A DNA stretch of 64,000 nucleotides from a virus: positions 9,254 to 73,253 of IMG/VR virus record IMGVR_UViG_3300033156_000392. One strand, given 5' to 3'. The notes under the pieces were generated by a model. The model did not search any database, was not told the origin of the DNA, and saw only the letters and a program-made list of their open reading frames with translations. A program made the translations under genes and the position numbers. The stretch's first letter is position 1. Every line of letters starts with the position of its first letter. This document shows positions 14,040 through 60,955 of this stretch, piece after piece.

Positions 14040-15181
14040 AGATACTCCTTCTGGCAGCCTCTCCCTTCCTCCAGACGGCGTATGGGTACATAGGGAGGTG
14101 TCTCGGGAAGACTCTCGCTCTGAAGCACGAGGTGTACTACTTCGGAGCAAAGTACTACGGTCTCCCCTACTCGAGAGACGGGTACGTCCTTCTTCCCACT
14201 GCTCTCTCTTCCTCTGGCCAAGAGATAAAGACAGGGACGGAGAGAGCCATAGCAGCCATCAACAGAATAAAGCCTGACATCTTAGTTACTCTCGGGGACC
14301 TTCTCTTCCTCAAGTATCTTGAGGTCGTGAGAGAGAGGCCGTACTGGATAGGATACTTCCCGGTGGAGTCCGATCCCTTCAGACCCTCAGAGATAGGAAC
14401 CGCTAGAAAGATGGACTTAGCCGTTGTCCCGACTAAGTGGGGGCAGAGAGTGCTCAAGAGAGACGGTGTGGAGGCTGAGTACATACCACATCCCTTGAAT
14501 CCCTCTTTCTACCACGTACGGAAGGAGAAAGCTAGGTCTATGCTCCTCACTACGGAGGACAGAGACCTAAAGAAACAGTTTATTTTCGGGTACTGTGGGA
14601 CCAACGTCGAGAGGAAGAGAATAGACAGGCTGATGGAGGCTTTCAAGAGTGCTTTCAAAGGGGAGGAGGACGTTCTTCTCTGGCTGAACACTCCCACAAC
14701 GGATCCTCTTGGCTGGGATCTGCCGTACATGTCAAAGGTGCTGGGGATAGAGAAGCAGGTAGTCTTCACCTCATACATCGACTTCTTCCCTCCCTCTGAG
14801 GAGGAGCTGAACACCATCTACAACTCGTGGGACGTCCACGTCACAGCATCCTCCGGAGAGGGATTCTGCCTCCCCGTCCTCGAGACTATGTCTCTCGGGA
14901 AGCCACAGATAGGGACGAAATACTCCTCTCTCCCGGAGCTGATAGGAGACTCCGGGATACTGGTTCCTCCTAGAGAGATAGTCTTCGGAAATCTTGGGCA
15001 CAGAGCTCTGGTCGACATAGACCTTCTCGCAGAGGCTATGAGAAAGATGTACGAGAACGAGGAAGCAAGGAGAGTTTTCTCTGCCAGAGCAGAGGAGAGA
15101 GGGAAGGAGTACGAGTACAAGAGAGTGATGACGCAGTGGCTCTCTCTCCTTGACAGAGTGGAGGAGGATCTCTTTGGCTAG
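14036..15181 (+). CDS. GT-B glycosyltransferase (GT4-like)
   Basis: N..RKR, EGFCLPVLETMSLG motif. Confidence 0.9.
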   Translation: MKILLLAASPFLQTAYGYIGRCLGKTLALKHEVYYFGAKYYGLPYSRDGYVLLPTALSSSGQEIKTGTERAIAAINRIKPDILVTLGDLLFLKYLEVVRERPYWIGYFPVESDPFRPSEIGTARKMDLAVVPTKWGQRVLKRDGVEAEYIPHPLNPSFYHVRKEKARSMLLTTEDRDLKKQFIFGYCGTNVERKRIDRLMEAFKSAFKGEEDVLLWLNTPTTDPLGWDLPYMSKVLGIEKQVVFTSYIDFFPPSEEELNTIYNSWDVHVTASSGEGFCLPVLETMSLGKPQIGTKYSSLPELIGDSGILVPPREIVFGNLGHRALVDIDLLAEAMRKMYENEEARRVFSARAEERGKEYEYKRVMTQWLSLLDRVEEDLFG

Positions 15182-16328: not shown

Positions 16329-16329
16329 T

Positions 16330-16491
16330 ATGATGGAAGAAATAACAGAAAAGAAAGTCGTACTAGGGAGCGTTCTGGCTGGCTTCGCTCTAGTGGGGTA
16401 CGTTCTGAACTTCCACGAGCTGACAGCCATCATGATAGCTCTCTTGGCTGGTCTCTTCGGCTTGGAAGGGTACAACAAGCTCAAGAAATAG
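16330..16491 (+). CDS. 53-aa two-TM membrane protein (not in ORF track)
   Basis: AGGTGA RBS; two hydrophobic segments and basic tail YNKLKK. Confidence 0.55.
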   Translation: MMEEITEKKVVLGSVLAGFALVGYVLNFHELTAIMIALLAGLFGLEGYNKLKK

Positions 16492-16509
16492 ACAGAGAGA
16501 GGACTACAA

Positions 16510-30020: not shown

Positions 30021-30317
30021 TTATAAGTCTTTTCCCTTCGTCTCTACGTCTGTAAGCTGTAGCTGTTGCGGTTTCTTCTTCTGCTCCATGAGGAAGGAGA
30101 AGAGGTTCCTCAAGTCTTCCTTGTCAACTGGCTCCATCGTCACTTTCAGGGCTCCGAGGAGCTTTGTCACGTACGCCACTCCCGCTGGGCACTGCTTTCT
30201 GAGTGTTTCTATCTCTTCTATGCTCTCTTTCTTAAGAGGGAAGTATATAAGGAATCTGTTCTTGTCGTTCTTCAGTGTTATCTCCCAGTCTATAATTTCC
30301 TTCAGCTTCTCCTTCAA
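30021..30317 (-). CDS. Hypothetical protein
   Basis: GAGGTGA RBS; operon context. Confidence 0.55.
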   Translation of the reverse strand: MKEKLKEIIDWEITLKNDKNRFLIYFPLKKESIEEIETLRKQCPAGVAYVTKLLGALKVTMEPVDKEDLRNLFSFLMEQKKKPQQLQLTDVETKGKDL

Positions 30318-30784
30318 GTGGAATCACCTCCCAGTCTTGCTATCACCAAGCTGTTCACGGATTCTTGGAGTGAGAGAGTTTCTTCTTCCACCCTGAAGTA
30401 GAAGGGTGGGTTCCATTTTTCCATGCTCTCGTATCTGAAGGAGTAGACCATCTGCCACGCCCCTCTGGCTACTCCGTATAGGAGAAGATACTTCGGGCCT
30501 GGACTCTTCAGTGAGAGGAGCTTCATCAGTATCTCTGAGAAAGTGGAGAGGTCCTCTGGGACGGTGTGCAGAGGAATCTCTATCTTGAACTCACTGGAGG
30601 TATAGTTCTTGTTAGCTATCTTGAGAACTACGGGGAGAGTTATGACGTCTTCGTAGCTCTTCATCTCTTCCTTTCTGACGAAGTCTTTCTTGTCCCTGCT
30701 GTAGAGAGCCACTCCCTGTAGCATCTGCTTTCTCACTTTCTCTCCTCCATCCATCTCTTGAGATCGTACTTGATGTCTCCACAC
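30314..30784 (-). CDS. Hypothetical protein; true start probably internal
   Basis: Operon context. Confidence 0.5.
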   Translation of the reverse strand: MWRHQVRSQEMDGGEKVRKQMLQGVALYSRDKKDFVRKEEMKSYEDVITLPVVLKIANKNYTSSEFKIEIPLHTVPEDLSTFSEILMKLLSLKSPGPKYLLLYGVARGAWQMVYSFRYESMEKWNPPFYFRVEEETLSLQESVNSLVIARLGGDST

Positions 30785-34181: not shown

Positions 34182-34520
34182 TCAGACTTCACTTCTCTCT
34201 TTCTTGACATCCATCAACCACCTCCTTATTCTGTTGTGCTCTCTTGACAGATTGAGAAGTGAGAGTGCCGCTCTTTCACTCTTCCTCTCCACCATCATCA
34301 TTATCTTGTCCAGATACTCTTTATACGCTTTCACGACGTTCTCCAGGATTTCCTCAGTAGAGCTTCCCTCAGTTTCTATCCGCACCGGAGGCACACTCTC
34401 CAGTCCAAGAGTCTGCATATATCTCGGCTCTGGATACCATATCGAGATGTATTTCTTGAGTGTACGAGCTATCTCTTTCACTTCTTCTCCAAGCTCTTTG
34501 AGACTCTCTCTTTTTTTCAT
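34182..34520 (-). CDS. Hypothetical protein
   Basis: ATGA overlap, RBS. Confidence 0.55.
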   Translation of the reverse strand: MKKRESLKELGEEVKEIARTLKKYISIWYPEPRYMQTLGLESVPPVRIETEGSSTEEILENVVKAYKEYLDKIMMMVERKSERAALSLLNLSREHNRIRRWLMDVKKERSEV

Positions 34521-34788: not shown

Positions 34789-35562
34789 TCACTCCGTCTT
34801 CGGTAGGAGAAGGTCGAGAGCCACCGTCTCCAGAATTCTCTCTGCCAGTAGGTCCAGCTTCTTCTGCTTGTGTATCTCTGACTTGTACTTTCTACTGGTT
34901 ATGGCTGAAACTATCCTCTGGAAGCAGTCCCAGACAGTCATGTCCTCTATTTCCTTCTTTTGATGGTCTACGGCTATTCTCTGCTCTATTTTCTCTTTAA
35001 GTCTCTCTCCAGCCTTTATTCTCTGAAGAATGGCTGTATACTCCTCGTAATCAAGTTTTCTCTGTGCTAGCTTCTCCACTATCGGTTTCCAGAGCTCTAC
35101 GACCTTGTTTACCACCTTGAAGTAGTCCTGTACAGCGACGTCTATCTTTCCTCTGTGGGTCTTTCTGAAGGGTCTGGTGGCGGCCTTTGGGAGCTTGTAG
35201 TGGAAGCCTGTTACTCTGTGCACGAAGTCTATTTTGAGAGCGTTCTTGCCGTCAGCGGTGTTCATGACCTTTATCCCGACGTCGCTCTCCAGTGGGTACA
35301 CCGTCATCTGCCCTCTTCCTTCCCAATATATCACTCTCCCCTCGATCTCCTCCGGAAGGTTCTTGAGTGCCTCTCTGTAGAGATCTCTGAACTGCACCAG
35401 CTTGTAGTACTTCGAGACCACCGATATGGCTTTCTTCTTCCCTTTCTCTCTTATGGCTCTGAGCTCCTTCTGCCTCTCCCAGCTTCCGTTGTCGTCTATG
35501 GCTATGTCCGTCATCTCAAGCTCCGGTAGCTCTGCAACTCTCTCCAGTAGCTCTTTCTTCAC
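34789..35562 (-). CDS. DUF932-like protein
   Basis: SVVSKYYKLVQ, N..DG...L and H.G motifs. Confidence 0.6.
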   Translation of the reverse strand: MKKELLERVAELPELEMTDIAIDDNGSWERQKELRAIREKGKKKAISVVSKYYKLVQFRDLYREALKNLPEEIEGRVIYWEGRGQMTVYPLESDVGIKVMNTADGKNALKIDFVHRVTGFHYKLPKAATRPFRKTHRGKIDVAVQDYFKVVNKVVELWKPIVEKLAQRKLDYEEYTAILQRIKAGERLKEKIEQRIAVDHQKKEIEDMTVWDCFQRIVSAITSRKYKSEIHKQKKLDLLAERILETVALDLLLPKTE

Positions 35563-35575
35563 TTTCTACCACCTC

Positions 35576-36226
35576 CTAATTTAATAGTTTCTTTAGCTCA
35601 TCTTTAGGGATGAGAGCAATCTTGTCTGAGAACTTCTTCTTACTCTTCAGGATGAAGGCCTCTCCCTTCCTCAAGACACGTCTGTACTCTCCGAGAAGCT
35701 TCTTTCTCCTCTCTACAGCCCTATCGAAGTCCAGCAGGATGTTGAGTATCTTTCTATCACTAAGGTCTTCTATGTCCCTTCCACAATTCAGAGACCAGTA
35801 GAACTTTTGTACTTTCTTCATAATCTTTATCCCTTCCAATATCACGTCACCGAACTCCTCCAGTCCTTTCTCTCTGAGCCCGAAGAAGAACGTGTCTGGA
35901 AGTCCTTCTGAGAGAACATCTATCCTCTGGACGGTCCGGTACTTGTATATTCCACCACGTCTCAGAGTGTACTCTGAGTAGATGGATATTCTATTCTCCC
36001 AAGCAATGGCAGAGGCTATGAGATGTACAGTTTCTTCCATTCTCTCCATAAGGTCTCTGAGAACGGCTGGACTGATCTCTTTCTCTATCTCTTTCAGTGT
36101 CACCACTTTCTCTCTCCTCTCCGATACCAGCCTCTTGTACTCCTTCTCTTTGAAGAGGTTCACACGTTTCTGGAGGAGGCTTAGAGCCTTCAGCCTCTTC
36201 TTGAGCTCTTGGTCAATCATCCTCAT
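35576..36226 (-). CDS. Array paralogue 8 (coiled-coil family)
   Basis: DQELKKRLKAL...MEETVHLIASAI...RRGGIY...KKFSDKIAL. Confidence 0.75.
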   Translation of the reverse strand: MRMIDQELKKRLKALSLLQKRVNLFKEKEYKRLVSERREKVVTLKEIEKEISPAVLRDLMERMEETVHLIASAIAWENRISIYSEYTLRRGGIYKYRTVQRIDVLSEGLPDTFFFGLREKGLEEFGDVILEGIKIMKKVQKFYWSLNCGRDIEDLSDRKILNILLDFDRAVERRKKLLGEYRRVLRKGEAFILKSKKKFSDKIALIPKDELKKLLN

Positions 36227-36863
36227 CTCTCCCAAGTGAGTTCAGAGCTATCTCTGTTGAGAACTTATCGATGATCTCCTCTCTCAGCTCGTCTATCTTC
36301 TGTTTCAGAGGGAGTGTTCGTCTGTCTATCTTTCTGAGCTCTCTGAGCAGCTTCTCCCCTTCTATGAGCGTTTCAAGAGTGTTGTCGAGTGTGTCAACCT
36401 TGAAGTAGATAGAGTCCTTCCATACCTTCTTGAAGAGCGTGTCCACGTGCTTTCTGAGCTTGAGAGAGTATCTGAGAAGCTCTTTCATCCTCTTCATCTT
36501 CGTCTTTCTGAGCAGCTCTCGCAAATCTTCTTCATCTATTACGAGAAGATGTACTCTCTCTGGAGAGTCAGACCAGAATATCCCTTCTCTCGGGACGTAT
36601 GTGATAGCGTAGTCATCTAACTCCACTTTCACTTTCTCCGTGACCATAGCACCAGCCACTCTGTGTATCAGACCTTCTATGGCGTCTGGAAGAGGTGTAA
36701 CTCTTTCCATCAGCTTCCTCCTGAGTGCAACCAGTTCATCAAGGAGCTCTCTCTTCTCCTCTTTCATTCTCTTCTTCTCGTCCTCTACGTACTTCTGGAA
36801 CTCCTTCTCAAGCCTCTGGAGAGTCTTGACTCTCCTCTGTAAATTCCTGTCCGTTTCTCCCAC
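36213..36863 (-). CDS. Array paralogue 7
   Basis: DRNLQRRVKTL...IEGLIHRVAGAM...VPREGIF...DKFSTEIALNSL. Confidence 0.75.
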   Translation of the reverse strand: MGETDRNLQRRVKTLQRLEKEFQKYVEDEKKRMKEEKRELLDELVALRRKLMERVTPLPDAIEGLIHRVAGAMVTEKVKVELDDYAITYVPREGIFWSDSPERVHLLVIDEEDLRELLRKTKMKRMKELLRYSLKLRKHVDTLFKKVWKDSIYFKVDTLDNTLETLIEGEKLLRELRKIDRRTLPLKQKIDELREEIIDKFSTEIALNSLGRDEDD

Positions 36864-36870
36864 CTCTCTA

Positions 36871-37125
36871 TCAGAGTACGTCGGGGTACCTCTCCAGGAG
36901 GTACGATGCTGGGTATGGTCTCCCGTCGACTTTCTTCCCGTCTCTCAGGAGTATTATCACAGCTATTTCGTTGACGTTGTCCAAGAGTATGACGTCACTG
37001 GCCAGCTCTGAGGCAATGTTCTCAAAGACCTCCTCTCTAAGCTCTGCACCATATCTTTCCAACATTCTCTGGTCCACTCTCATCTCGGTTAGGATGCCCA
37101 TTCGCAGGCCTTCTATCTCTCTCAC
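36871..37125 (-). CDS. Hypothetical protein interrupting the array
   Basis: No array motifs. Confidence 0.5.
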   Translation of the reverse strand: MREIEGLRMGILTEMRVDQRMLERYGAELREEVFENIASELASDVILLDNVNEIAVIILLRDGKKVDGRPYPASYLLERYPDVL

Positions 37126-37296
37126 TCACTCTACCTCTGTGGTCCATAAATAGATGCAAGCGTTTCCACGTTCCATTTCTTCTCTGTACCCACGTTTGAG
37201 TTTCTTTCTCTTTTTCTCTGCATCCTTCCTTCTCTTGAATACATAGACCTCTTCAACGAGCCCTCTCCACTCCAGAATTACTGCGTACACTTTCAA
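37126..37296 (-). CDS. 56-aa hypothetical protein (not in ORF track)
   Basis: GGAGGTGA RBS, TTG start, MKVYAVILEW...EVYVFKRRKDAE. Confidence 0.55.
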   Translation of the reverse strand: MKVYAVILEWRGLVEEVYVFKRRKDAEKKRKKLKRGYREEMERGNACIYLWTTEVE

Positions 37297-37991
37297 ACTA
37301 TCACCTCCTTTTTTTCTCGTTCTCGTCTTGAAGGAAGAAGAGCCAAGATGTGAGAGAATTTCTCCAAGCTCCTCCTGATGAACTCGTCCGCCTCTCTAAT
37401 AGCTTTCTTCCCTTTCTCCCTCCTTTTCAGCAGCTTCTCTCTCAGTTCATCATAGTGTATCAGGATGTCTACTATTCGGTCCTCTCCGAGGTCCACTCCA
37501 AGAGTCGTTAAGTCCAAATTCTCCAAGGGAGCGAAACGTTCGTGTAAGGAAGTGTAACGTGCTAGCCCCTTCAGCTTCCTTGCTATCTTTCTTCCTCTCT
37601 TGATGCATTGACCATACTGTATCAGGAGTTCGTCGTCCACAGTCCCAAGAAGGTACAGCTCTGGAAACTCTCTCTCGTCGGAGAGAATGTCCACTGCGTA
37701 ACGTGCTCCGTACCGATATATCCCATCTTTTCTTATACTGTAGCTCCTGCCGAGAATGACTTTGCCCTTCACTAAGAAAATGGCAGAAGCTATGACGTCC
37801 ATCGTCTCTTCCATCTCCTCCAGCTTCTCTGCAAACAGAGTCGTTTCACTCTCTCTGTAAAGAGCTCTGAGAGCTCTCAGGTCTTCTCTTCTCTCTCTGA
37901 TGATCCGTTTGTGCTCCCTCTCGATCATTCTCTCCACTCTCCTCCGGAGCTTTTCAAGAGCCTCTACTCGCTTCTTCAGCTCTCTGTCCAT
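37293..37991 (-). CDS. Array paralogue 6
   Basis: MDRELKKRVEAL...MEETMDVIASAI...RKDGIY...EKFSHILAL. Confidence 0.75.
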   Translation of the reverse strand: MDRELKKRVEALEKLRRRVERMIEREHKRIIRERREDLRALRALYRESETTLFAEKLEEMEETMDVIASAIFLVKGKVILGRSYSIRKDGIYRYGARYAVDILSDEREFPELYLLGTVDDELLIQYGQCIKRGRKIARKLKGLARYTSLHERFAPLENLDLTTLGVDLGEDRIVDILIHYDELREKLLKRREKGKKAIREADEFIRRSLEKFSHILALLPSRREREKKEVIV

Positions 37992-37992
37992 G

Positions 37993-38619
37993 TTACGACA
38001 CTCTCCCTCTCTTGAGCGTTGACAGAGCAAGCTCCTCCGAGAACTCCTCCATCATTCTCTCCTTCAGCTTCTCCAGTCTCTCTTCTATCTCTCTTCTCTT
38101 CTCTAAGTGTGCGTTGAGCTTCTCGAGAATTGTGTCGGCGTTCTGGAGTGCCTCTATCTGGCCGTGTAGGTAGCCAAGAGATGGTATGTCTGAAGGTTGT
38201 CCGGAACTTCTGTAGCTCCGATAGTTCGCCATTATCCTTTGGTACTCTTCCAAGCACTCTCCGAGTACTTCAAGTTTCCTCTCTCCGGACTCCTTGAGAT
38301 ATTTCAACACTGGTGAGGAGAAGTATTTCAAGTAGATTGGGTACTTATGTCTGTAGTAGAAAATCCCTCTCCCGGGTCTGAGGCTAATCTGCTGGCTCAC
38401 TGTCTTCGTCTCTGTATACATGTTTCCGGCTATCTGATGGAACATTCGTTCTATGTCTTCTCCCAAGTCTTTGTACACCTCTGCTTTCTTCTCCTCTATT
38501 TCCTTCAGGACGTCTTCTCTCTCCTTGACCAGCTCCATCTTCCTCTTCTCTATGAACTCCTCAACCCTCTCTCTGAGAGTTTCAAGCCTCTTGAGCTCCT
38601 CATTCAGCTTCTCATCCAT
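37993..38619 (-). CDS. Array paralogue 5
   Basis: MDEKLNEELKRL...IERMFHQIAGNM...LRPGRGIFY...EEFSEELALSTL. Confidence 0.75.
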   Translation of the reverse strand: MDEKLNEELKRLETLRERVEEFIEKRKMELVKEREDVLKEIEEKKAEVYKDLGEDIERMFHQIAGNMYTETKTVSQQISLRPGRGIFYYRHKYPIYLKYFSSPVLKYLKESGERKLEVLGECLEEYQRIMANYRSYRSSGQPSDIPSLGYLHGQIEALQNADTILEKLNAHLEKRREIEERLEKLKERMMEEFSEELALSTLKRGRVS

Positions 38620-39265
38620 TCTTCTTCCTCCTCAACGAGTACATACTCGCTTCCTCAGAGAATTTCTCCAGCATTTCTCCTCTCAGCTTCTCGATTTCTC
38701 TCTCAATCCTGTCTTTCTCTCTCAGAGCTTCTTCCAGTCTCTCTTTCTCCTCGTCTATCGTCGACAAGTACTCTATCATCTCTATCCCGTGGTAGTCCGG
38801 TCCAGCGTAGTATGGAGGGCTCTCAAAGCTATGATACAGAGCCCGTAGTCCCTCGTACAAGCAGGAGAGTCTGTGTATGTAGAAGCCGAGAGCTCTCACT
38901 CTCTCGTTCTCAGAGCTCATCATACTTCTTCCAGCTCCATCGTCATAGAATATCGGTGCTCTGTGTTTCTTTCTGTGGTAGAAAATTCCTCCGTTCGGTC
39001 TTATCACTAAGTATTCGGAGTTCAGATAGGGCTTCTGTAGAGGTATCTTGATGAGCTTGTTGCTCATCTCTCCAGCTATTCCGTGTATCAGTTCTTCCAT
39101 CTCGTTTGTCGAGGGTGGAGAGAGTTCTTTATATAGCTCTCTCACCCTCATTAGCTCTTCGTGCTTGGAGTTCACGATTGTGTCTATCCTGCTGTATATG
39201 AAGTTTCTCACTCTCACCTTCAGTGTCTTCAGCCTTTCAGCCTCTTTGACAAGCTTAACGTCCAC
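38612..39265 (-). CDS. Array paralogue 4
   Basis: MDVKLVKEAERL...MEELIHGIAGEM...IRPNGGIFY...EKFSEEASMYSL. Confidence 0.75.
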   Translation of the reverse strand: MDVKLVKEAERLKTLKVRVRNFIYSRIDTIVNSKHEELMRVRELYKELSPPSTNEMEELIHGIAGEMSNKLIKIPLQKPYLNSEYLVIRPNGGIFYHRKKHRAPIFYDDGAGRSMMSSENERVRALGFYIHRLSCLYEGLRALYHSFESPPYYAGPDYHGIEMIEYLSTIDEEKERLEEALREKDRIEREIEKLRGEMLEKFSEEASMYSLRRKKNG

Positions 39266-39266
39266 A

Positions 39267-39884
39267 CTATCTCCTCCTCTCCTTCAGGAAGTAGAAGGTG
39301 GCCTCGGTACTCATCTTCTCCAGAAGTCGTCCTATCTCTCTCCAGATTTCTCTGAACGTCTTCTTCTTGAATTTTAGGACTTCTCTTCCGTACTTCAGGT
39401 GACTGTCCAAGCGAGCAATGAAGTACAACCTCTCTCTCTTCTGCTCAGGGACGGCTGGAAGAAGGTTTCTTACCGAGAAATAGGAGTCCAGCAGTCCACG
39501 GACTCTTCCAAGAGTCTTAGCAATCTCTCTTACCTTCTCGTTCTTCGAGTTCAGCATCCCAGCTATCCCAATCAACGAGAGTACGTCGACTCTCAAAATC
39601 TTCTCTCTCTTCTTTCCTCCGTACAGTCCTTTCCCCGGACGTATGACCAATTTTCCACACCGGACTGGCTTCTCTGCTATCTGCCCAAGCAAGCCCTGTA
39701 TGAGGTCCTCCACCTTTAATATCTCAGGATAAGGGTTTGTTTTATCTATTAGCTCTGTGTATTTCTTGAGCTTCCTCATTCTCCTTCTCTCCAGCTTCTC
39801 CATCTCTTTCTCCACAAAGGTAAACATGGCTGTCTCAAGCTTCTCCAGAGACTTAACTCTCGCAAGGAAGTCCTCATCTCTCAC
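39267..39884 (-). CDS. Array paralogue 3
   Basis: DEDFLARVKSL...VEDLIQGLLGQI...IRPGKGLY...EKMSTEATFYFL. Confidence 0.75.
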   Translation of the reverse strand: MRDEDFLARVKSLEKLETAMFTFVEKEMEKLERRRMRKLKKYTELIDKTNPYPEILKVEDLIQGLLGQIAEKPVRCGKLVIRPGKGLYGGKKREKILRVDVLSLIGIAGMLNSKNEKVREIAKTLGRVRGLLDSYFSVRNLLPAVPEQKRERLYFIARLDSHLKYGREVLKFKKKTFREIWREIGRLLEKMSTEATFYFLKERRR

Positions 39885-40503
39885 GTTTCTCCCTCGACAG
39901 CAGATAGAGAGGAAGGTCTTCTGAGAACTCGCTATAGACCTCTCTCTCGATCTCTCTAATCATCTCCTCAATTTTTCTTTTCCTTCTCAGCTTTCTTTTG
40001 AGTTCTCTCAGTACGGTCTTGTGGTTGAGAGCCAAAGACGCTTTCTCCTCCTCCGAAGTATTCTCTATCAACCAGACTCCGTACAGACAGGCATCCAGTT
40101 TCTCGTACAAAGCAGAAATTCTCTCCGAGAAGTCCGCCACCCTTATCGCTCTCTTCTCACCAGTTTCTCTGAGCTTCTTTATGAGCGTCTTAGAGGGGTA
40201 GTACGTAAGCAACATTCCTCCCTCATCCGAGAGTCTGACTCCTCTCCCCGGAACGATGAGTAGACTCAGACCGTTTATCTCTCCAAGATACACAATTTCT
40301 CTCAGGTCGGCAGAGAGAACGTACTGCAGGAAGTCCTCCAAGTTTCTCCTGACTCTCCATAGGTGTCCGTCCAATAGCTCGTGTGCGACTCTCTCTATCT
40401 TTCTAAGCTCTACTCTGTGCTCTCTCAGTATCCTCTTTATTTCAGCTTTCTTCCTGTAGACGTACTCTTCAAAAGTTAGTCCCTTCTCACGCTTCAAAGT
40501 CAT
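39874..40503 (-). CDS. Array paralogue 2
   Basis: LEDFLQYVL...IVPGRGV...SEFSEDLPLYLL. Confidence 0.7.
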   Translation of the reverse strand: MTLKREKGLTFEEYVYRKKAEIKRILREHRVELRKIERVAHELLDGHLWRVRRNLEDFLQYVLSADLREIVYLGEINGLSLLIVPGRGVRLSDEGGMLLTYYPSKTLIKKLRETGEKRAIRVADFSERISALYEKLDACLYGVWLIENTSEEEKASLALNHKTVLRELKRKLRRKRKIEEMIREIEREVYSEFSEDLPLYLLSREKRER

Positions 40504-41170
40504 CCCTCCTTCTGAGAGCGTACATAGAAATCTCTGTGGGGAACTCGCTCGTGAGTTTCTCCACTAGCTTCGCTAGCTCCATTCTCAAGTGTCTCGCTTC
40601 CTCAGCCGCCTTCTCTGCTCTTTCCATCTTGAAGTCTATGAAAGCCAAGAACCAGAGTCGTTCGACTGTGTCAGAGGGTATCTCTGGCACTGAGCCCCTT
40701 ATTTCTCTGTATCCCTGGACGATCTCGAGGAACGTATCCAGTCTCTCTCCCAGTTTTTTCTGCTTCTTGTCCTTACTTCCGTATAGCTCTATGATGACGT
40801 TTGTGATTTCTCTTATCGGAAGAGTCAGCAGAACGTACTTTATTCCCAAGTTTATCCCTACTTCGGGACTCTCTGCCGTCTTCACCATCCTCTCCAGCCG
40901 TATTTTGCCTCTCGTCACCTCTGTCAACAGTTCTCGTAGGAGAGATTCAACAAGACATAGCTCGTCTCCGAGTTTCTCCAAGTCTTTCAGAGTGTCGATG
41001 TACTCTCTCATTTTCTTCTCTCCTTCTTTCAGCATTCTCTCCTTCTCGCTGAGTATGAAGCCTCTCATTCCTCTCTCAAGCCTCTCAAGGGCGACCAGTG
41101 TTTTCATAATACTCCTCTCCGGCATTTGTTCTTTTTTCTCCATTCTACCAGCCACTACTTCAGAAGCCAT
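40487..41170 (-). CDS. Array paralogue 1
   Basis: MKTLVALERLE...VESLLRELL...SPEVGI...SEFPTEISMYAL. Confidence 0.7.
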   Translation of the reverse strand: MASEVVAGRMEKKEQMPERSIMKTLVALERLERGMRGFILSEKERMLKEGEKKMREYIDTLKDLEKLGDELCLVESLLRELLTEVTRGKIRLERMVKTAESPEVGINLGIKYVLLTLPIREITNVIIELYGSKDKKQKKLGERLDTFLEIVQGYREIRGSVPEIPSDTVERLWFLAFIDFKMERAEKAAEEARHLRMELAKLVEKLTSEFPTEISMYALRRRDDFEA

Positions 41171-41700
41171 ATACAGAGCCTCTCTGAGTGCTTCATAACG
41201 AAGTCCTTGAGAATTTCTTCCGCCTCCTCCGCTTTCTCTCTCGTTTCCATCAGCATCTTCGCTAGCTCTCTCTCTATTCTCTTCCTATGTCTATAGAAGC
41301 ACTCATAAGAGGTTGGGTCCTCCGGGTTAATAAATCTCTCTCCTCTCTTTATTCGGAGTTTAGAGTCTATAATGAGGGTAAATTCACTATTTAGTCGTTT
41401 CTCTCTCTTCTTTAGAGTAAATATCTTGTTTATTTTTCTGTATATGGAAAATAGTCCCTTTATGACCTCTATTTTGTCTTTACTGAGAGAATATATATCT
41501 ATTCGTTCGCCTTCCCAAGTGTAGATGCCGTTTCTCCTAAGTAGCACCTCTCTCTCCAGCTCACTCTCTATCAACTTGAGTACTTTGGCTACTATATTCC
41601 TGTGTGCTCTTCTCCAGATGCCCTCCACGTACAGGTGGAGCTCGCTCAGATGTTGGTAGACGCTCCATTCTCTCAACCAGAAGGCTTCTTCTCTTCTCAC
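41155..41700 (-). CDS. Probable divergent array member
   Basis: LRRNGIY...RIDI as in paralogues 6 and 8; ends KHSERLCIWLLK. Confidence 0.6.
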   Translation of the reverse strand: MRREEAFWLREWSVYQHLSELHLYVEGIWRRAHRNIVAKVLKLIESELEREVLLRRNGIYTWEGERIDIYSLSKDKIEVIKGLFSIYRKINKIFTLKKREKRLNSEFTLIIDSKLRIKRGERFINPEDPTSYECFYRHRKRIERELAKMLMETREKAEEAEEILKDFVMKHSERLCIWLLK

Positions 41701-41710
41701 ACAATCTCAC

Positions 41711-42100
41711 CTATCTTCTTTTCAGGAGCTTCCAGAGTCCAAGCTTCCCTATGAAGGTCCAGTACTTTTCTCTCCCCAAGAATCTCTCTCCCCATCTCTC
41801 GGAGAAGGCTTTGGGGCAGTCTATGACGTGCTTCGGGAGAGTTTCTATGATGTATTTCTTCAGTTTCTCCTCGCTCTCGAAGCTCAAGTAGAAGCTCTTG
41901 TCTTTTCCGGCTACTCTGACTATCTCTGCTTTCTTGTCCAGAGCACCTCTCAGTATCTCTGACGCTATCGAAGGGTCTATGGACTTGAAGGGGAAGCTGA
42001 GTATCCTCCACTCTCCCTCGTAGGCTCTGTGAACCCAGAGAGCCTCTCTCCACGTGGGGAGGAGTCCCTCTATGTAGCACAGCAGTTTCTTCCTACTCAT
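41711..42100 (-). CDS. Hypothetical protein
   Basis: Follows a palindrome; ends KLGLWKLLKRR. Confidence 0.55.
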   Translation of the reverse strand: MSRKKLLCYIEGLLPTWREALWVHRAYEGEWRILSFPFKSIDPSIASEILRGALDKKAEIVRVAGKDKSFYLSFESEEKLKKYIIETLPKHVIDCPKAFSERWGERFLGREKYWTFIGKLGLWKLLKRR

Positions 42101-42122
42101 ACTTCTTCCTCGCTCTGTAATC

Positions 42123-42143
42123 CTAAAATAATCATTATTTTAG
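42123..42143. repeat. 21-bp perfect palindrome
   Basis: CTAAAATAAT-C-ATTATTTTAG. Confidence 0.9.
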
Positions 42144-42147
42144 CTCT

Positions 42148-42519
42148 CTACTGCTGGCTCGCTCCCTCTGACAGGATCTCAATCGCTATGTTCTGGTATA
42201 TCTCGTCCCAGTCCTCATCAGTCATTCCAAGCACTGTTTTGCTCTCTCTTATGAACTTCTTCGTGTACTTCTTCATATATTTGGAGAGGTACTTGATGAA
42301 CTCTATCATTTTCTTTCTCCTCTTGAATATGAAGAATATGTACGATTTCTTCACAAGCGGAATTTCTATTTCTCCCCTCAGTGCTATTCCTCTCTTCACT
42401 ATCTCCGTAAGCGTCTCACTCCTAAAGCCGTACGCTTTGAAAAACACTCCGTTAAAGCCGGAATTGTACCACAAGAGAGTCCCGAATATCTTCATTTCTC
42501 CTATCACTTTGTCCACCAT
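42148..42519 (-). CDS. Hypothetical protein, paralogue of 42562..42936
   Basis: LTEIVKRG, F.R..K..EF..YLS, LG...E shared; flanked on both sides by palindromes. Confidence 0.7.
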   Translation of the reverse strand: MVDKVIGEMKIFGTLLWYNSGFNGVFFKAYGFRSETLTEIVKRGIALRGEIEIPLVKKSYIFFIFKRRKKMIEFIKYLSKYMKKYTKKFIRESKTVLGMTDEDWDEIYQNIAIEILSEGASQQ

Positions 42520-42538
42520 CTCACCTCTCTTTCTTTTG

Positions 42539-42559
42539 CTAAAATAACAGTTATTTTAG
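42539..42559. repeat. 21-bp perfect palindrome
   Basis: CTAAAATAAC-A-GTTATTTTAG. Confidence 0.9.
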
Positions 42560-42561
42560 GA

Positions 42562-42936
42562 CTACTGAGTCCTCTCAGCAAGCCTGTTTACGACGACGTT
42601 GCTCTCTATAGTCTGGTACTCCTCCTCACTCAGTCCAAGTTTCTCTCTTCCTTCGAGTCTGAACTTCCTCGTAAGACTCCTCAGAACGGTGCTGAGGTAG
42701 AGGAGAAACTCTCTCAATTTCTCCATACGTTGAAACCGGAGAACCAGCGTCGCTCTCGACTTAGACCGAAACGCTGACGTGAACAGCAGGAGAGTCGCTC
42801 CTCTCTCCACACCCTCTTTCACTATGTCCGTGAGAGCCTGTGCCGGAAGGGTGTCTGCTCTGAAACTTATGTCTCTCTCCATCTCGAACCAGACCGGAAT
42901 CTTCTTCTCGGTCATTCTGCCTATCATCAGAGTCAT
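42562..42936 (-). CDS. Hypothetical protein, paralogue of 42148..42519
   Basis: LTDIVKEG...FQRMEKLREFLLYLS...LGLSEEEY; start taken at ATG 42936. Confidence 0.7.
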   Translation of the reverse strand: MTLMIGRMTEKKIPVWFEMERDISFRADTLPAQALTDIVKEGVERGATLLLFTSAFRSKSRATLVLRFQRMEKLREFLLYLSTVLRSLTRKFRLEGREKLGLSEEEYQTIESNVVVNRLAERTQ

Positions 42937-42955
42937 ATGCTCGCCTCTCTCTTCC

Positions 42956-44215
42956 TCACTCTTCCTTCCGTATTCTGGTAGTTCTCCCAAATGGTACTTC
43001 TTCCTCTGCCTTACCGTCTGGTGTCAGTATCCAGAGTGTCTCGTGTCTTCCTCTCCTCTCTGGGAAGTCTCCGTACCCGTCGGTGAAGTAAATCAGCAGT
43101 TTCGCTCTCTTCTTATGCTCTCTTATCCACTCGAAGACTGGTCTGAAGTCCGTCCCACCGTATCCAGTCCTCTTGAAGACTCTCTTTCTGGAGACCTTCT
43201 CAAGAGGTTCTGCCATCTTGATGCTGGCGTCGCACTCTATGTATGTCCCTCTCAGTGTGTCTCTGTGTATGTCGAATATTCTCCTAATCTCTCCCATAAA
43301 CTGAGAGTAGTCCTCGTCAGATATTGACCCAGACGTGTCCACCGCTATCACTATGTCTATCTTCTCCTTGAGTACTGATGGGAAGTATGTCCCGAGTGTC
43401 TGAGAACGTTTGTGCGGTCTTCGCCAAGTGTAGTCTTTTGGTATCTCTTTCGTGATGTATCTCCATAGCATCTGCTTCCACCCAAGTTTAGACGGTAGTA
43501 TCTTGTCTATCAGTTTCTGTAGTCCTGCTGGCAGTTTTCCCTGTACCTTAGCGAATGTGGCGGCCTTGATGGTGATGTCCTTCCAGAACTCTCCTATGTC
43601 CGTCTCCGGATGTTTAAAAGGCTCTTCGTTGCCTCCGGAGCCCTTCTCGTCCTTCTTTCCCTCGTTGTCTTCTCCCTCTTCGCCATAGAACCCTTCTTTC
43701 TTGTCGTTGTGGGTGTCGAACTGCTTCTGGAGTATTCCCTTTCCTTCTCTGTCTCCCTTTCCGTCTCCACCACTTCCAGAGACGGGTATGTGTATCTTCT
43801 TTGCGTTCTTCATCAAGTAGTCGTAGACCGCCTCTACCACCTTGCCTCTGAACGTCTCCAGCGGCTGTATTGCGAAGTCTGGCACTGGACTCCCAGACTC
43901 GTAGAGCATAGTGTTCACGACGTAGTCTCCCGCTATATTCCAGACGACTGGCTCTCTCCCCTGTCTCCTCAACAAGTGCTCAAGTATCAGATGGAGTATC
44001 TCGTGCTTTATGACGAACTGTAGTTCTATGTCTCCCAGCTTCTTCACGAAGTCTGGATTGTACGGTACGTTTCCGTATCTGTCTACTCCCATCGTCGGTA
44101 TCTTCTTGTTCTCTCTGAACTTCAGGTATGTGGCTATGTAGGAGAAGAACGGCTCTTCTTCCTGTAGGAGAACTATGGCTCTCGTTATTCTCTCTCTTGG
44201 AGTCAGTTGAAACAC
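42956..44215 (-). CDS. DUF2201-type HExxH metallopeptidase-like + vWA domain protein
   Basis: TMGVD, HEILH, WNIAGD..VN; vWA MIDAS DTSGS, GGTDF, YFTDG. Confidence 0.9.
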   Translation of the reverse strand: MFQLTPRERITRAIVLLQEEEPFFSYIATYLKFRENKKIPTMGVDRYGNVPYNPDFVKKLGDIELQFVIKHEILHLILEHLLRRQGREPVVWNIAGDYVVNTMLYESGSPVPDFAIQPLETFRGKVVEAVYDYLMKNAKKIHIPVSGSGGDGKGDREGKGILQKQFDTHNDKKEGFYGEEGEDNEGKKDEKGSGGNEEPFKHPETDIGEFWKDITIKAATFAKVQGKLPAGLQKLIDKILPSKLGWKQMLWRYITKEIPKDYTWRRPHKRSQTLGTYFPSVLKEKIDIVIAVDTSGSISDEDYSQFMGEIRRIFDIHRDTLRGTYIECDASIKMAEPLEKVSRKRVFKRTGYGGTDFRPVFEWIREHKKRAKLLIYFTDGYGDFPERRGRHETLWILTPDGKAEEEVPFGRTTRIRKEE

Positions 44216-44292
44216 TTTCTACCACCTCCTTATCTTTCTCTCTCAAACTATGTATGGGGATCGCTAATAAAGTGTATGGGAGAGAGACGTTC

Positions 44293-45027
44293 TTACTTGT
44301 CTCTCTCCAGAAGTTTCACGGAGACGTATGGTGCGGCTATCATATAGGCCGCCCTCACTCTTTCCTCTAAGTCGTCTCTGAACTTCCTGAACTCCTCTAC
44401 TCTCTTTCTGACTTCCTGTCTGATGAACTCCTCGTGTATGTAGAAGAGAGTCAGAGAGTCGAGGTCGCTGTAGAGTCGTGTCCTTATACCGTAAAGTTTG
44501 CTCTGAACCTCTATGCTTGTGTACGGAAACGCTATCCACAGTTCGACTGTCTCTGTCTCCACTGTATACTTCGTCTTCCACTCCACGCCCTTCACTTGCT
44601 TCAGACACTCTATCAGAGTCTTCAGCATTTCCTTCTTTGTGGGTCTGACGTTCGCTCTCGCTTCCTCTGTCTGGAGAAGGTCTATGAACTTCTCTATCTT
44701 ATATGACCTCGCATAGACGCTGTCGTCGTATACCTTGAACTCAAACACACTCCCTCGCCCACTGTTGTAGTACCCTTTGTAGACGAGTCCCGTGTTCGTT
44801 ATGGCGACGTCGTCAAGGTCTGCTCTCTTCCTCATCAGCCCTCTCGACAGTGTTCTTATCAGTTTCTCGTAGTTTGTACAGAGAGTATGTACGTCTTGGG
44901 AAATCTTCGTCACCTCTTTGTCCACCTCGCTCTTCCACTCCGTCAGTTCGTCTCTGAGTTCGTCTACCTCTCTCCAGAACTCGAAGTTCTGGGGCTGTGT
45001 GTACTCCTGCTCAGGCATCTCCACCAC
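44293..45027 (-). CDS. Coiled-coil protein between AAA+ and vWA genes, possible distant array member
   Basis: Helical termini; YEKLIRTL...ITNTGL; ends PYVSVKLLERDK. Confidence 0.6.
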   Translation of the reverse strand: MVEMPEQEYTQPQNFEFWREVDELRDELTEWKSEVDKEVTKISQDVHTLCTNYEKLIRTLSRGLMRKRADLDDVAITNTGLVYKGYYNSGRGSVFEFKVYDDSVYARSYKIEKFIDLLQTEEARANVRPTKKEMLKTLIECLKQVKGVEWKTKYTVETETVELWIAFPYTSIEVQSKLYGIRTRLYSDLDSLTLFYIHEEFIRQEVRKRVEEFRKFRDDLEERVRAAYMIAAPYVSVKLLERDK

Positions 45028-45033
45028 TCTGTC

Positions 45034-46131
45034 TCAGAAGGTGTACTTGACTATCGTCTTTGAAATCTCCTTCCACTCCGGTATCTTTGCTGAGACTCTC
45101 CGTACGTACTTCTGGTGTCTGAGTACCAAGTTTCTCATCAGGACTATTCCGAACTCTGGTTTTTCCCACGCTGTCTCTGTCAACTGTGCTATCTTACAGT
45201 ATGCTCTGAAGAACTTCTCGTCCTCTTTGAAGAAGTGTATCAGAGCAGATGTCAGAGCCCATCTCTCGTTGAGAGCAGTTATGTCTCTCACTCTGTTGGG
45301 GTCTCTCACGAAGTCCTCCACCTTGTACTTCTTGACCAGTCGTGAGAACTCTATGAACTCCTTCGCTATGCCGTTGCCCACCGATGACGCCACGAGTATC
45401 TCTATCTCTTTCTCGTCCTCTACGTCAGAGATTAGTTTAGAGGCTCTCCACCAACTCCTCGGAGTCGGGAAGGCTCTCTCCTCAGTGTTCTCTTCCAACT
45501 TGAAGAGATAGTCTGCTCTGAAGTTCAGAAATGCCTGTATCCTGTGGTCTACACCGTTCTTCATAGCCCACCGTGTCCAGATGTTTATGTGTGGCACTCT
45601 GAGTTCAACCCAGTCAAATCTGTTCTCAAGTGGCTTGGCCATCTCGAAGGTGTGTGCTCTGTCTTCCTCTTTGTTTCCAGCACCTATCACCACGTATCCC
45701 TCTGGGAGTACGTAGTCTCCGAGTTGTCTGTCCAGAATCAACTGGTAGCACGCACTCTGTATGCTCGGTGGGGCTAAGTTTATCTCGTCTAAGAAGATAA
45801 TCCCTGCCCCTGTCTTTGGGAACCAAGATGGGGGTATCCACTTGGTTATTCCACCGTGTCCGTTCTCCATTATCTTAGGCAGTCCGAGAAGGTCGCTTGG
45901 CTCTAACTGAGAAACTCTCCTGTCTATAAGGCAGAAGTGCTTCTCAGAGTTTATGTCCTCTGGTCGCTCTGAGTACTCGAGTTTCATAGACTCCGCTATC
46001 TCTTTGGCAGTCTTCCTGACTGTGTCCGACTTGCCTATCCCTGTCCTCCCCTGTATACAGAGAGGTATCCTCTTCTCATAGTGTCTCCGTATGACTCTCT
46101 CGAGTTCTTCGTGGTTCACTTCTCTCACCAT
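45034..46131 (-). CDS. MoxR/dynein-related AAA+ ATPase
   Basis: Walker A GRTGIGKS, Walker B IIFLDE, AGN sensor, L.NRF Arg finger, FPTPRSW. Confidence 0.92.
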   Translation of the reverse strand: MVREVNHEELERVIRRHYEKRIPLCIQGRTGIGKSDTVRKTAKEIAESMKLEYSERPEDINSEKHFCLIDRRVSQLEPSDLLGLPKIMENGHGGITKWIPPSWFPKTGAGIIFLDEINLAPPSIQSACYQLILDRQLGDYVLPEGYVVIGAGNKEEDRAHTFEMAKPLENRFDWVELRVPHINIWTRWAMKNGVDHRIQAFLNFRADYLFKLEENTEERAFPTPRSWWRASKLISDVEDEKEIEILVASSVGNGIAKEFIEFSRLVKKYKVEDFVRDPNRVRDITALNERWALTSALIHFFKEDEKFFRAYCKIAQLTETAWEKPEFGIVLMRNLVLRHQKYVRRVSAKIPEWKEISKTIVKYTF

Positions 46132-59365: not shown

Positions 59366-60955
59366 GTGAGAGAGGTGCTTTTGGATGAGACAGGCTCTCT
59401 CGGCTTCGATACTCTTCTCGAGACTGGATACGTCGTCTTTCCACCTCTCACGGAGACTGGGACAAGGCTGCTGGTGAGGACCTACTCGACTGACGCTTCT
59501 CTCTGGGTCAGTACGTACGTAAGCTCCTCCGTGTCGGCTGCTCTCTCCGCTCTTCTCTCCCAGAGAAAGACGACGGATGTTGGAATGGAAGCTCCCTTGC
59601 TTGCGGAGAAGGTGAAAGACGCTTCTCTGGAGAGCGTGCTAATGCAGACGTACATCACCTCTGGGCGGAGAGCGACTGAGACTGGAGAGGTGTTCTGGGG
59701 CGTTTCAGAGTCTGGGCTTACCGGAGATCCGATACTCGAGGATGGAGAGATCCTTCTTGGAGCTTATGGTCTGGTCATGGAGAGTGTCCTTAAAGGGGTG
59801 CTCTCTGCCTCAGCCTTACTTGAGGGGGTCATGAAGAGTGCTTTGAGCACCACCGCCACTCTCTCCTCCGTTCTCGGCCTCTCCGAGACCGTGAGTGCTT
59901 CGGTAGAGAGCGTTCTCAAGGCTCTTGCCTCAAAAGACGCTGCTCTTGAGGGACTTCTCCTCGGGACCTATCAGAAGGGAGTCGGACTGGAGGCCGAGAT
60001 CGAAACACTCTACAACAAAGTCGCCTCTCTAGAGGCAGTCTTGTTCACTCCGATGACTCTATCAGCCACTCTCGACGTCGCTCTTTCTGCTCTCAGAAAC
60101 GTCGGTCTTGCTCTCGAAACTGTCACGGCCTCGAGGCTCTCTCTCGGATCTTCTCTGGAGGGAGTCATACTCGGAGTCTACACTCTTGGCACGCCTCTCT
60201 CCGCTCCTCTCTACAAGTTTCTTACAACGACTCTGAGCATGGATGTCGCTCTCGGGTTGAGGAAAGCCGTTACGTCAAGCTTAGATTCTGTTCTCTTAAA
60301 TAGGAGGGTTTCTTCTGCACTTCTCGAGGGAGTCATCTTGGGCACTTACACGCTATCGACTCCCATGGACGTAGCTATCTACTCCGTAATGGAAACTTCA
60401 ACAGCCCTGGATGCTCCTCTGTACAACCTAGAGAGTGTACAAGCACAGATGGAAGTGGCACTCAAGTACATGCTGACCACTTCGGTTTCTCTTGACGCTC
60501 CTCTCTTCTCAAGGAGAGTCACCGCTCCGACTCTCTTCGCCCCTCTGTACTCCGTGGAGAGCACACAGACGTTTCTCTCGTCCTCTCTCTATAGGCGACT
60601 ATCAGATTCTCTCTCTCTTACAACTGCTCTGAAGTATTCTCTATCTTCTTCCGTATCTCTCTCCGCCGCTATCTACTCGACGCTGCAGAAAGGTACTCTG
60701 ATGGAGAGTCCTCTGTACACCCTTCTCTCTCTCGGAGCGTCAATGGAGACACCACTCTACAGAGTTCTCAGTGCCTCGTCCACTCTAGAAAGCTCACTGT
60801 ACTACTTGCTTACGGAGAGTCTTTCTCTTGAAGGGTGCATCTCTGCCAGGAAGAGCTCCACAGCCTCACTGGAGGCACATCTGGACTGGTTCGCTAAGGA
60901 GAGAGTGGTTATCTACTTCACACAACCTGGGAGGCTGATAGTTTCCTTTGAATAG
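59366..60955 (+). CDS. Repeat-built fibre-like protein (ETG motifs + ~27 x 14-aa repeats)
   Basis: [LM][ED]xx[LI] recurring every 14 residues. Confidence 0.7.
   Translation: MREVLLDETGSLGFDTLLETGYVVFPPLTETGTRLLVRTYSTDASLWVSTYVSSSVSAALSALLSQRKTTDVGMEAPLLAEKVKDASLESVLMQTYITSGRRATETGEVFWGVSESGLTGDPILEDGEILLGAYGLVMESVLKGVLSASALLEGVMKSALSTTATLSSVLGLSETVSASVESVLKALASKDAALEGLLLGTYQKGVGLEAEIETLYNKVASLEAVLFTPMTLSATLDVALSALRNVGLALETVTASRLSLGSSLEGVILGVYTLGTPLSAPLYKFLTTTLSMDVALGLRKAVTSSLDSVLLNRRVSSALLEGVILGTYTLSTPMDVAIYSVMETSTALDAPLYNLESVQAQMEVALKYMLTTSVSLDAPLFSRRVTAPTLFAPLYSVESTQTFLSSSLYRRLSDSLSLTTALKYSLSSSVSLSAAIYSTLQKGTLMESPLYTLLSLGASMETPLYRVLSASSTLESSLYYLLTESLSLEGCISARKSSTASLEAHLDWFAKERVVIYFTQPGRLIVSFE

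Follow-up and report, generated by a model that had tools for sequence, protein, structure and literature searches.

Does a viral operon equip unrelated proteins with a common, transferable C-terminal tag? The question is raised by a window of 64,000 nucleotides from IMG/VR virus record IMGVR_UViG_3300033156_000392 (positions 9,254 to 73,253 of that record), in which gene calling places 18 tightly packed genes on the minus strand at 34789-46131. The operon encodes a MoxR-type AAA+ ATPase, a metallopeptidase-like protein with a vWA domain, a tandem array of nine diverged paralogues and several smaller neighbours, and 14 of its products end in a short hydrophobic motif followed by a brief tail. 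The original prediction took this ending for a portable docking or sorting tag on otherwise unrelated proteins that could be read by the AAA+/vWA machine. Our analysis suggests that what these products have in common is, for the most part, no transferable tag but the ordinary amphipathic helix with which small, helical and highly charged proteins end. An ordinary inherited or structural terminal helix is the most likely reading, held at about even confidence.

The analysed contig is the single 73,253-base virus record to which the window belongs. Genes were called with a simple in-house caller (minimum 40 amino acids), which missed one long open reading frame near 59366-60955. The genes of the operon, and one gene just 3' of it, are as follows; a plus sign separates motif and tail.

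45034-46131, minus strand: MoxR-type AAA+ ATPase of 365 amino acids (Pfam AAA_5, phrog_1297, Walker A and B); ends ..TIVKYTF, without the terminal motif.
44293-45027, minus strand: ORFan of 244 amino acids between the AAA+ and vWA genes; YVSVKLL (44308-44328) + ERDK.
42956-44215, minus strand: metallopeptidase-like and vWA protein of 419 amino acids (DUF2201_N and DUF2201); ends ..RIRKEE, without the terminal motif.
42562-42990, minus strand: small protein s142, a paralogue of s123; NVVVNRL (42580-42600) + AERTQ.
42148-42519, minus strand: small protein s123; NIAIEIL (42172-42192) + SEGASQQ.
41711-42100, minus strand: small protein s129; KLGLWKL (41726-41746) + LKRR.
35576-41700, minus strand: tandem array of nine diverged paralogues (about 181-245 amino acids), interrupted by 37126-37296 and 36871-37125; members at 41155-41700, 40487-41170, 39874-40503, 39267-39884, 38612-39265, 37993-38619, 37293-38030, 36213-36863 and 35576-36235.
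37126-37296, minus strand: protein of 56 amino acids within the array; ends NACIYLW + TTEVE, with the motif-like stretch at 37144-37164.
36871-37125, minus strand: second small gene interrupting the array.
34789-35562, minus strand: protein of 257 amino acids; TVALDLL (34807-34827) + LPKTE.
34182-34520, minus strand: protein of 112 amino acids 3' of the operon; array-like KSERAALSLL (34254-34274), internal, 23 residues before the end.

Two of these frames probably start later than called. The 245-codon frame at 37293-38030 probably begins at the ATG right after the stop of 37993-38619 (MDRELKK.., 232 amino acids, as in database entry P0006), and the 142-codon frame of s142 at the ATG of MTLMIGRM, giving 124 amino acids and matching the 123 of its paralogue s123.

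All nine endings quoted in the original prediction are present in the translations of the genes named there. Those of the neighbours are ETVALDLLL + PKTE (34789-35562), KLGLWKLL + KRR (41711-42100), NIAIEIL + SEGASQQ (42148-42519), NVVVNRL + AERTQ (42562-42990) and PYVSVKLL + ERDK (44293-45027); those of the array are EIALNSL + GRDEDD, ELALSTL + KRGRVS, EISMYAL + RRRDDFEA and DLPLYLL + SREKRER. The description of the tails as mostly charged holds in part, failing for SEGASQQ (one of seven residues charged) and AERTQ (two of five). Each array member ends in (K)FSxE-Phi-small-Phi-x-x-L and a further 1-11 residues. Across the families, hydrophobicity is all that is conserved. The neighbours do not retain the acidic residue that stands before the helix and are like the array only in the spacing of hydrophobic residues (i, i+2, i+5) close to their ends; two array members have a proline within the motif. 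The tails between motif and carboxyl end are 1, 4, 4, 5, 5, 5, 5, 6, 6, 6, 7, 7, 8, 8 and 11 residues long.

How unusual such endings are depends on the definition. The strict pattern [AILVMF][AGSCTVP][ILVMF]..L.{1,8}$ matches 12 of the 18 operon proteins and 4 of the 106 other proteins of the contig, with 0.4 and 3.9 matches, respectively, expected from the internal rate of the core; it was fitted afterwards to these very proteins, so that the counts are descriptive only. A loose definition asks for a hydrophobic cluster and then a short tail with at least 40% charged residues; 12 of the 18 operon proteins, 17 of the 48 others in the leftward arm and 15 of the 58 remaining ones fit it. Since 32 of the 106 proteins outside the operon fall within it, helices with a charged tail are nothing unusual in this highly charged proteome. 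The prediction was to fall if the terminal pattern were equally common elsewhere in the genome; on this contig the strict pattern is not, so that the idea survives this test, and the loose pattern is common. One of the four strict matches outside the operon is a protein of 156 amino acids in the same arm (30314-30784, minus strand), which ends ..SLVIARL + GGDST.

The endings also lack the geometry of known terminal tags. ssrA-type degrons are recognition tags anchored at the carboxyl group, their spacing from the free carboxylate being fixed. The endings in the window are likewise short hydrophobic C-terminal elements on diverse proteins, with an AAA+ protein as the proposed reader, but their distance from the free carboxyl end is not fixed (1-11 residues) and they do not qualify as anchored tags. 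No carboxyl-anchored suffix is shared by the proteins of the contig: three suffix patterns tested match 3, 0 and 0 of its 124 proteins.

The array accounts for the largest share of the endings. Eight of its members are recovered by blastp together with a profile at E ≤8e-11. The ninth, 41155-41700 (181 amino acids), is an N-terminally shortened member: it aligns collinearly from the GIY strand to its ..KHSERLCIWLL end and matches the nine-member profile, which includes it, at E 2.1e-29, whereas against a profile built without it the match is collinear and non-significant (E 0.045). Proteins s142 and s123 are paralogues of each other (blastp, E 4e-12). The words "otherwise unrelated" therefore do not fit the nine array paralogues or the s142/s123 pair; they stand for s129 and the 244- and 257-residue proteins, for which no relation was detected. 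In hmmsearch, s129 matches the s142/s123 profile at E 1.3 and the array profile at E 1.7, and thus has no detectable relation to either. A homology of the s142/s123 family to the array was also considered and rejected, with a profile-profile probability (hhalign) of 0.1% and with weak hidden Markov model (HMM) matches that are not end-to-end. The 14 motif-bearing proteins thus reduce to about five independent cases (the array, s142/s123, s129, the 244-residue protein and the 257-residue protein), and about two thirds of the motif cases are paralogues. For the nine array members, the end is inherited, as the best-conserved piece of one fast-diverging ORFan family; s142 and s123 add two further cases by paralogy; and in the four or five unrelated neighbours the likeness may reflect a common structural class together with some ascertainment.

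Relatives outside the virus offer little further guidance. The array profile finds only its own nine members, both among 5.8 billion proteins searched by word index and among 1.84 billion representatives searched with full HMMER. The 244-residue protein finds only itself among the 5.8 billion proteins, matches no Pfam or PHROG family and has no usable match in the ESM Atlas, and the small operon proteins have no relatives elsewhere. Because the array, the 244-residue protein and the small proteins stand alone in this way, conservation cannot decide on the tag. The 257-residue protein has one homologue, P0011 (32% identity), which ends ..NYAIALEI; the terminal hydrophobic helix is kept, with no tail and a different leucine register. 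The label "DUF932-like", given earlier to the 257-residue protein, is not established: its score against Pfam DUF932 (PF06067) is 17.2 bits (E 0.0046), below the cut-off of 23, no single stretch passes the threshold alone, and P0011 has no Pfam match at E 0.01.

In the array, the charged tail may be largely a by-product of gene packing. In translationally coupled arrays, a gene's ribosome-binding site lies within the end of the gene before it. Here, array junctions range from a 38-nucleotide overlap to a 13-nucleotide gap, and eight of the nine array genes contain a GGAG, GAGG or AGGA core within their last 27 nucleotides, a few nucleotides 5' of the next start. Several array tails contain the start codon of the next gene itself. 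The tails KERRR (AAG GAG AGG AGG AGA) and RRKKNG (AGG AGG AAG AAG AAT GGA TGA) overlap such purine-rich cores. The arginine, lysine, glutamate and glycine codons of the tails (AGG, GAG, AAG, GGA) are thus explained by the Shine-Dalgarno-like core or start of the next gene that lies within them; that the cores act as ribosome-binding sites is probable from their sequence and position. The operon resembles coupled arrays in having a Shine-Dalgarno-like core in the end of the preceding gene. Coupling explains the charged tails only and leaves the hydrophobic helix, and the tails of four neighbours, unexplained.

The hydrophobic helix itself is modelled as part of the fold. AlphaFold2 was run on 38612-39265 as a single chain with the nine-sequence alignment and gave a confident model, with a mean predicted local distance difference test (pLDDT) score of 88.2 and a predicted template modelling (pTM) score of 0.77. 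It has long N-terminal helices and a small three-stranded sheet; a long helix (170-201) is separated by a kink at F202 from the final helix (203-216), in which the motif lies. Residues 201-210 have a pLDDT of 95 and residues 211-217 one of 82. The FSxE part of the motif may, to judge from the model, resemble a helix cap. The ten C-terminal columns form the most conserved window of the array (mean pairwise BLOSUM score 1.64, versus 0.13 overall), followed by the RPxxGI strand and the ExxIxxIAG helix. The fold has no match in PDB or BFVD at E ≤0.001 (Foldseek), and in a wide VIA-align comparison the best Z, 8.1, fell among generic helical bundles, which is uninformative. The model of the 257-residue protein is too poor to be compared (pLDDT 53).

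The paralogy, the overlap of the tails with Shine-Dalgarno-like cores, the confidently modelled helix and the degeneracy of the motif are shown and speak for the ordinary-helix reading. That the end-helix lies buried and interacts with nothing beyond its own protein is inferred.

Several observations weigh against that reading, most of them from the ends of the neighbours. To avoid circularity, position-specific profiles of 10, 7 and 6 columns were built from the nine array ends only, and the last residues of the other proteins were scored with them. The eight non-array families of the operon have higher scores than the 106 proteins outside it (Mann-Whitney p 9e-3, 2e-4 and 9e-4 for 10, 7 and 6 columns) and than the 48 of these that lie in the leftward arm (p 1.4e-2, 6e-4 and 1.5e-3). 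When nine consecutive non-array genes at a time were taken as sliding sets, 107 in all, the set of the operon came out on top with each of the three profiles. The match is specific to the end: it falls in the top 5% of a protein's own windows for four of nine neighbours with 7 columns and for five of nine with 6, as against 9 and 7 of 101 other proteins (Fisher p 0.011 for 7 columns, 0.0006 for 6 and 0.07 for 10). A plain "helical class" effect does not explain such an end-specific match. Hidden paralogy is not supported either, to judge from the other array motifs, which are not enriched in the neighbours (GIY, N1 and N3, p 0.16-0.57; one helix motif, p 0.02). Nor can overlap with Shine-Dalgarno sites explain the tails of the 244-residue protein, s142, s123 and the 257-residue protein, because these genes have no adjacent downstream start; the next genes begin 41-77 nucleotides away. 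As to the model, the end-helix appears to pack against the helical body, with pLDDT as the only measure of its burial, and a conserved C-terminal window is as compatible with a functional site as with a structural core.

The excess in the neighbours therefore appears real and end-specific, but weak. Single array-profile scores are low (2-7 bits), with several proteins outside the operon scoring equally high, and a pairwise test of the last 14 residues found no pair of array member and neighbour above threshold. By the array-only profile the top-ranked neighbour is s129, and the 56-residue protein at 37126-37296, which the earlier account had not mentioned, ranks 3-6 of 115 with the 6- and 7-column profiles. 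Further discounting is called for because the pattern was picked out of the whole window when it was first described.

Among the alternatives, the one that survives best is that the helix is a shared docking element, which would be kept by selection on unrelated operon products that bind one partner. In one variant, the vWA/peptidase domain would capture the end and the ATPase would release or remodel the client; in another, the products would bundle together through the helix. Judged on the sequences of the operon, this is a possible reading, and we entertain it tentatively. The enrichment of the neighbours' ends at the level of families, of sliding sets and of the proteins' own interiors speaks for it, as do their lack of other array motifs and the conservation of the C-terminal window in the array. 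It has to contend with a motif in which only hydrophobicity is common across families, at 1-11 residues from the carboxyl end and, in the array-like 112-residue protein, at 23, with the preponderance of paralogues among the motif cases, with the absence of a carboxyl-anchored tag from the contig, with array tails that overlap the Shine-Dalgarno-like cores of the next gene, and with a helix that AlphaFold2 models confidently in a single chain, without a partner.

The candidate partners are well defined. The assignments of the ATPase and the vWA protein are firm at the level of sequence, with Pfam matches above cut-offs, PHROG 1297 and 1314 matches and readable motifs. The 45034-46131 product matches AAA_5 with 25.9 bits (cut-off 22) and phrog_1297 over residues 4-363 (E 1.4e-80), and its translation contains Walker A (GRTGIGKS) and Walker B (IIFLDE). 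The 42956-44215 product exceeds the cut-offs of DUF2201_N (136 bits, cut-off 23.2) and DUF2201 (71.2 bits, cut-off 26.4) and matches phrog_1314 at E 5.8e-85. It contains HEILH (an HExxH motif) and DTSGS, of the MIDAS type (metal-ion-dependent adhesion site), both invariant in the alignment with the homologue from one other vWA locus (L001, below); metal binding and catalysis are predicted. The intact DxSxS and HExxH motifs of the one protein and the Walker motifs of the other suit the docking alternative. Relatives of the vWA protein were found in 78 IMG/VR loci and in 577 of 50,697 phage records; the best of the phage matches covers 98% of its length at 29.7% identity. Other phages carry pairs of PHROG 1297 and PHROG 1314 genes (e.g. 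Bacillus phage G gp576, Pseudomonas phage PA5oct), and here too the two genes are adjacent and co-oriented, with intact motifs. Unlike in those phages, the pair here precedes an ORFan nine-member helical array and small ORFans.

Precedent for such a partner comes from the literature. In the available text of PMC7159879 (Kaur, Burroughs, Iyer and Aravind 2020), the vWA domains of MoxR pairs are proposed to capture a substrate peptide that the ATPase releases, and zincin peptidases are described together with small, fast-diverging proteins that conserve a C-terminal peptide (FxSxx-COOH, RxD and acidic types). The operon resembles these vWA-MoxR ternary systems, as far as that text describes them, in combining MoxR and vWA proteins, a zincin-like HExxH motif and fast-diverging proteins whose C-terminal segment is best conserved. 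It differs from them in its peptidase, which is fused to the vWA domain, in its viral setting, and in its conserved segment, a helix set back from the carboxyl end by 1-11 residues and not anchored at it. The array proteins, of about 210 amino acids, also contrast with the small peptides described there, and any cleavage here would be putative. The operon showed no radical-SAM, VMAP or effector genes, and Pfam returned no VMAP, iSTAND, FtsH or effector domains in the ten operon proteins scanned, the VMAP-C model not being among those searched.

A second precedent is Acidianus two-tailed virus (ATV), a thermophilic archaeal virus. According to the accessible part of PMC4124505, its MoxR protein p618 binds the vWA protein p892 and three virion proteins, so that a MoxR/vWA pair that binds the virus's own proteins is a precedent for several viral clients. 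The ATV clients are virion and tail proteins, and in that part of the source no terminal motif is reported for them and p892 is not described as a DUF2201-type peptidase fusion. The likeness of p618/p892 to the pair in the window is one of published description, not of sequence comparison. AAA/vWA pairs of haloarchaeal siphoviruses are noted in PMC7911831, with no function given in the text available. Literature searches on DUF2201 and on MoxR/vWA in phages and archaeal viruses returned no paper in which the phage pair was accompanied by a common C-terminal motif.

The 78 IMG/VR loci with relatives of the vWA gene, 60 of them non-duplicate, were compared over about 10 kb on either side of that gene. 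The pattern fitted to the operon is not enriched in them (53 of 1860 genes versus 41.8 expected), and among the genes called there the operon proteins other than the pair have no blastp or array-profile match. Next to the pair, several of the loci have tandem arrays, each with its own conserved end.

L001, 1100-8667, plus strand: 31 tandem zinc-ribbon mini-ORFs (open reading frames) of about 70 amino acids, which end ..PEE(L/I)ALALLM(M/L)EG(A).
L077, 13349-16749 and 16759-18364: eleven very diverged paralogues of about 95 amino acids, 3' of the vWA/AAA pair, with a near-invariant LFKIEHDIA end.
L072, 13759-16837: two copies of about 95 amino acids of the L077 type, which end LFKIEHDIA or LFKLEHDIS.
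L038, L039 and L044, about 9100-11550: AAA, a protein of 131-143 amino acids (..MFKMAW), one of 93-100 (..FFKLHNDIA), vWA and one of 96-99 (..FKLGQD), in this order.
L012 (same in L076), 14386-17820: four cysteine-containing paralogues of 209-236 amino acids, which end LLSLxxVLxDPP and a polar tail.

The conserved array ends of L077 (11 copies, LFKIEHDIA), L001 (31 copies, ..ALLMMEG) and L012 (4 copies) count in favour of docking. Most L077 and L072 copies are unrecognisable as relatives by blastp once their last 16 residues are removed, and larger neighbours in these two loci end ..MFKLEFEDENDNY and ..IMQKLEREDENAS, with a similar Phi-Phi-x-K-L-E-x-E-D stretch. L077 is the only one of the 60 non-duplicate loci with a suffix common to body-unrelated proteins, and this rarity counts against docking. 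So do the ends in L001, which lies in an unrelated high-GC virus, its array upstream of the AAA (8713-9774) and vWA (9920-11197) genes: the copies end ATG GAG GGT GCA TGA, which supplies the next copy with both a GGAGG site and an ATGA stop/start overlap. The ends in L038, L039 and L044 also belong to paralogues, in that the first two groups of small proteins are paralogous (hhalign 97%), and the third aligns over the last 30 or so residues (1-2%). Neither the pattern of the window nor the L001 end recurs in other loci. The loci therefore show arrays that recur beside the gene pair and not a common tag, because their conserved ends belong mostly to paralogues, overlap a ribosome-binding site in L001, and, in the case of the L001 profile, match nothing elsewhere.

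Two apparent links between these loci and the window were followed and rejected. The ..EELALALLMMEG ends of L001 are not the ..EELALSTL motif of the window, as the profile of the 31 ends reaches a best E of 0.2 in the other loci and the window. The L012 paralogues, which lie 3-7 kb downstream of one of the vWA genes closest to that of the window, are not relatives of the array (profile-profile probability 0.1%).

The version of docking first proposed, in which the vWA-peptidase/MoxR pair itself reads the shared end-helix, is doubtful. Equally hard to credit is its extension, in which the end-helix serves as this virus's C-terminal address label and at least 14 operon products (nine array proteins, three small proteins and the 244- and 257-residue proteins) are the clients. 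Under such a scheme, the vWA-peptidase would capture the last helix, the charged tail might be trimmed after the leucine, and the ATPase would then let the clients go, altered or assembled; the diversifying part that faces the target would be the variable helical bodies of the array.

Hidden common descent, or exchange of 3' ends, is improbable. The neighbours would then be diverged or truncated derivatives of the array, or would have gained an array 3' end by recombination at gene junctions. Truncation does occur, as the shortened 181-residue member shows, and residues 3-93 of the 112-residue protein match positions 123-214 of the array profile, its C-terminal half, at E 1.5e-4 in a small database of 21 proteins. 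Weak reciprocal matches also link s123 with 40487-41170 and 37993-38619 (E 0.018, 0.0043 and 0.0073), but they align to the middle of the array protein and not end to end, and the profile-profile comparison of the two families gave the 0.1% already cited. The word GCTCT is enriched 4.4-fold in the last 48 nucleotides of the operon genes (7 genes, p 0.001, 18 words tested), as exchanged ends might leave behind, and yet the codons of the motif differ widely between genes. The GIY, N1 and N3 motifs, which common descent might have left in the neighbours, are not enriched there.

Least probable is a nucleic-acid signal, in which pyrimidine-rich motif codons (GCUCU, CCUUC) would pair with the downstream Shine-Dalgarno site to gate coupled translation, or would end transcripts, the peptide likeness being a side effect: it can point to a single case at 39267-39884 (CUUCUACUUCCU pairing with AGGAGAGGAGGAG, z -1.56), to a hairpin over the stop of the 244-residue gene (z -2.34) and to GCTCT and ACCTTC as enriched words in the last 48 nucleotides of operon genes, but that enrichment is the expected look of hydrophobic and small codons in a purine-rich message, four neighbours have no adjacent downstream start, and the choice of motif codons is heterogeneous. 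RNA structure as a general cause was rejected, with mean z values in 81-nucleotide windows at gene ends of -0.38 (18 operon genes), -0.41 (48 genes of the arm) and -0.13 (58 remaining genes; p 0.26).

Some features of the spacers and of the other loci are recorded here in their own right. The ten-base-pair hairpin GGAGAGAGAC / GUCUCUCUCC (44279-44308, minus strand) spans the stop of the 244-residue gene, 77 nucleotides ahead of the next gene, and could be a terminator-like or regulatory element. The intergenic spacers at 42100-42147 and 42520-42561, behind s142 and s123, hold near-identical palindromes (TAAAATAACTGTTATTTTAG and CTAAAATAATGATTATTTTAG). Accessory families that often accompany the pair in other viruses (A5, A6 and the small "FK-end" proteins) have no detectable likeness to the operon proteins, and A5 and A6 were rejected as relatives of the 244- or 257-residue protein (profile-profile probability ≤0.4%). 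The A5 family comprises 34 genes near the pair in the 78 loci (e.g. L004:1431-2345, L024:1287-2144 and L001:6975-7919). Its members are mostly 283-325 amino acids long (range 220-354), with TLPW, DYP, PVPD and FRDSL in the consensus; three members tested had no significant Pfam family, one giving a sub-threshold Apolipoprotein match. A5 may be a common third component beside the AAA/vWA pair.

The MoxR/DUF2201 vWA-metallopeptidase pair occurs in hundreds of sequenced phages, and the partial texts covered by the literature searched describe no client or role for it. If the end-helix were the recognition element of the pair, the operon would be a compact, testable set of candidate clients, and the end-helix would tie in with the published idea that vWA-MoxR systems act on fast-diverging small proteins through a conserved C-terminal peptide. 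If the ending is only a structural helix with an overlapping ribosome-binding site, as under the ordinary-helix reading favoured here, it would serve as a warning that translational coupling and paralogy in tandem arrays can together mimic protein tags.

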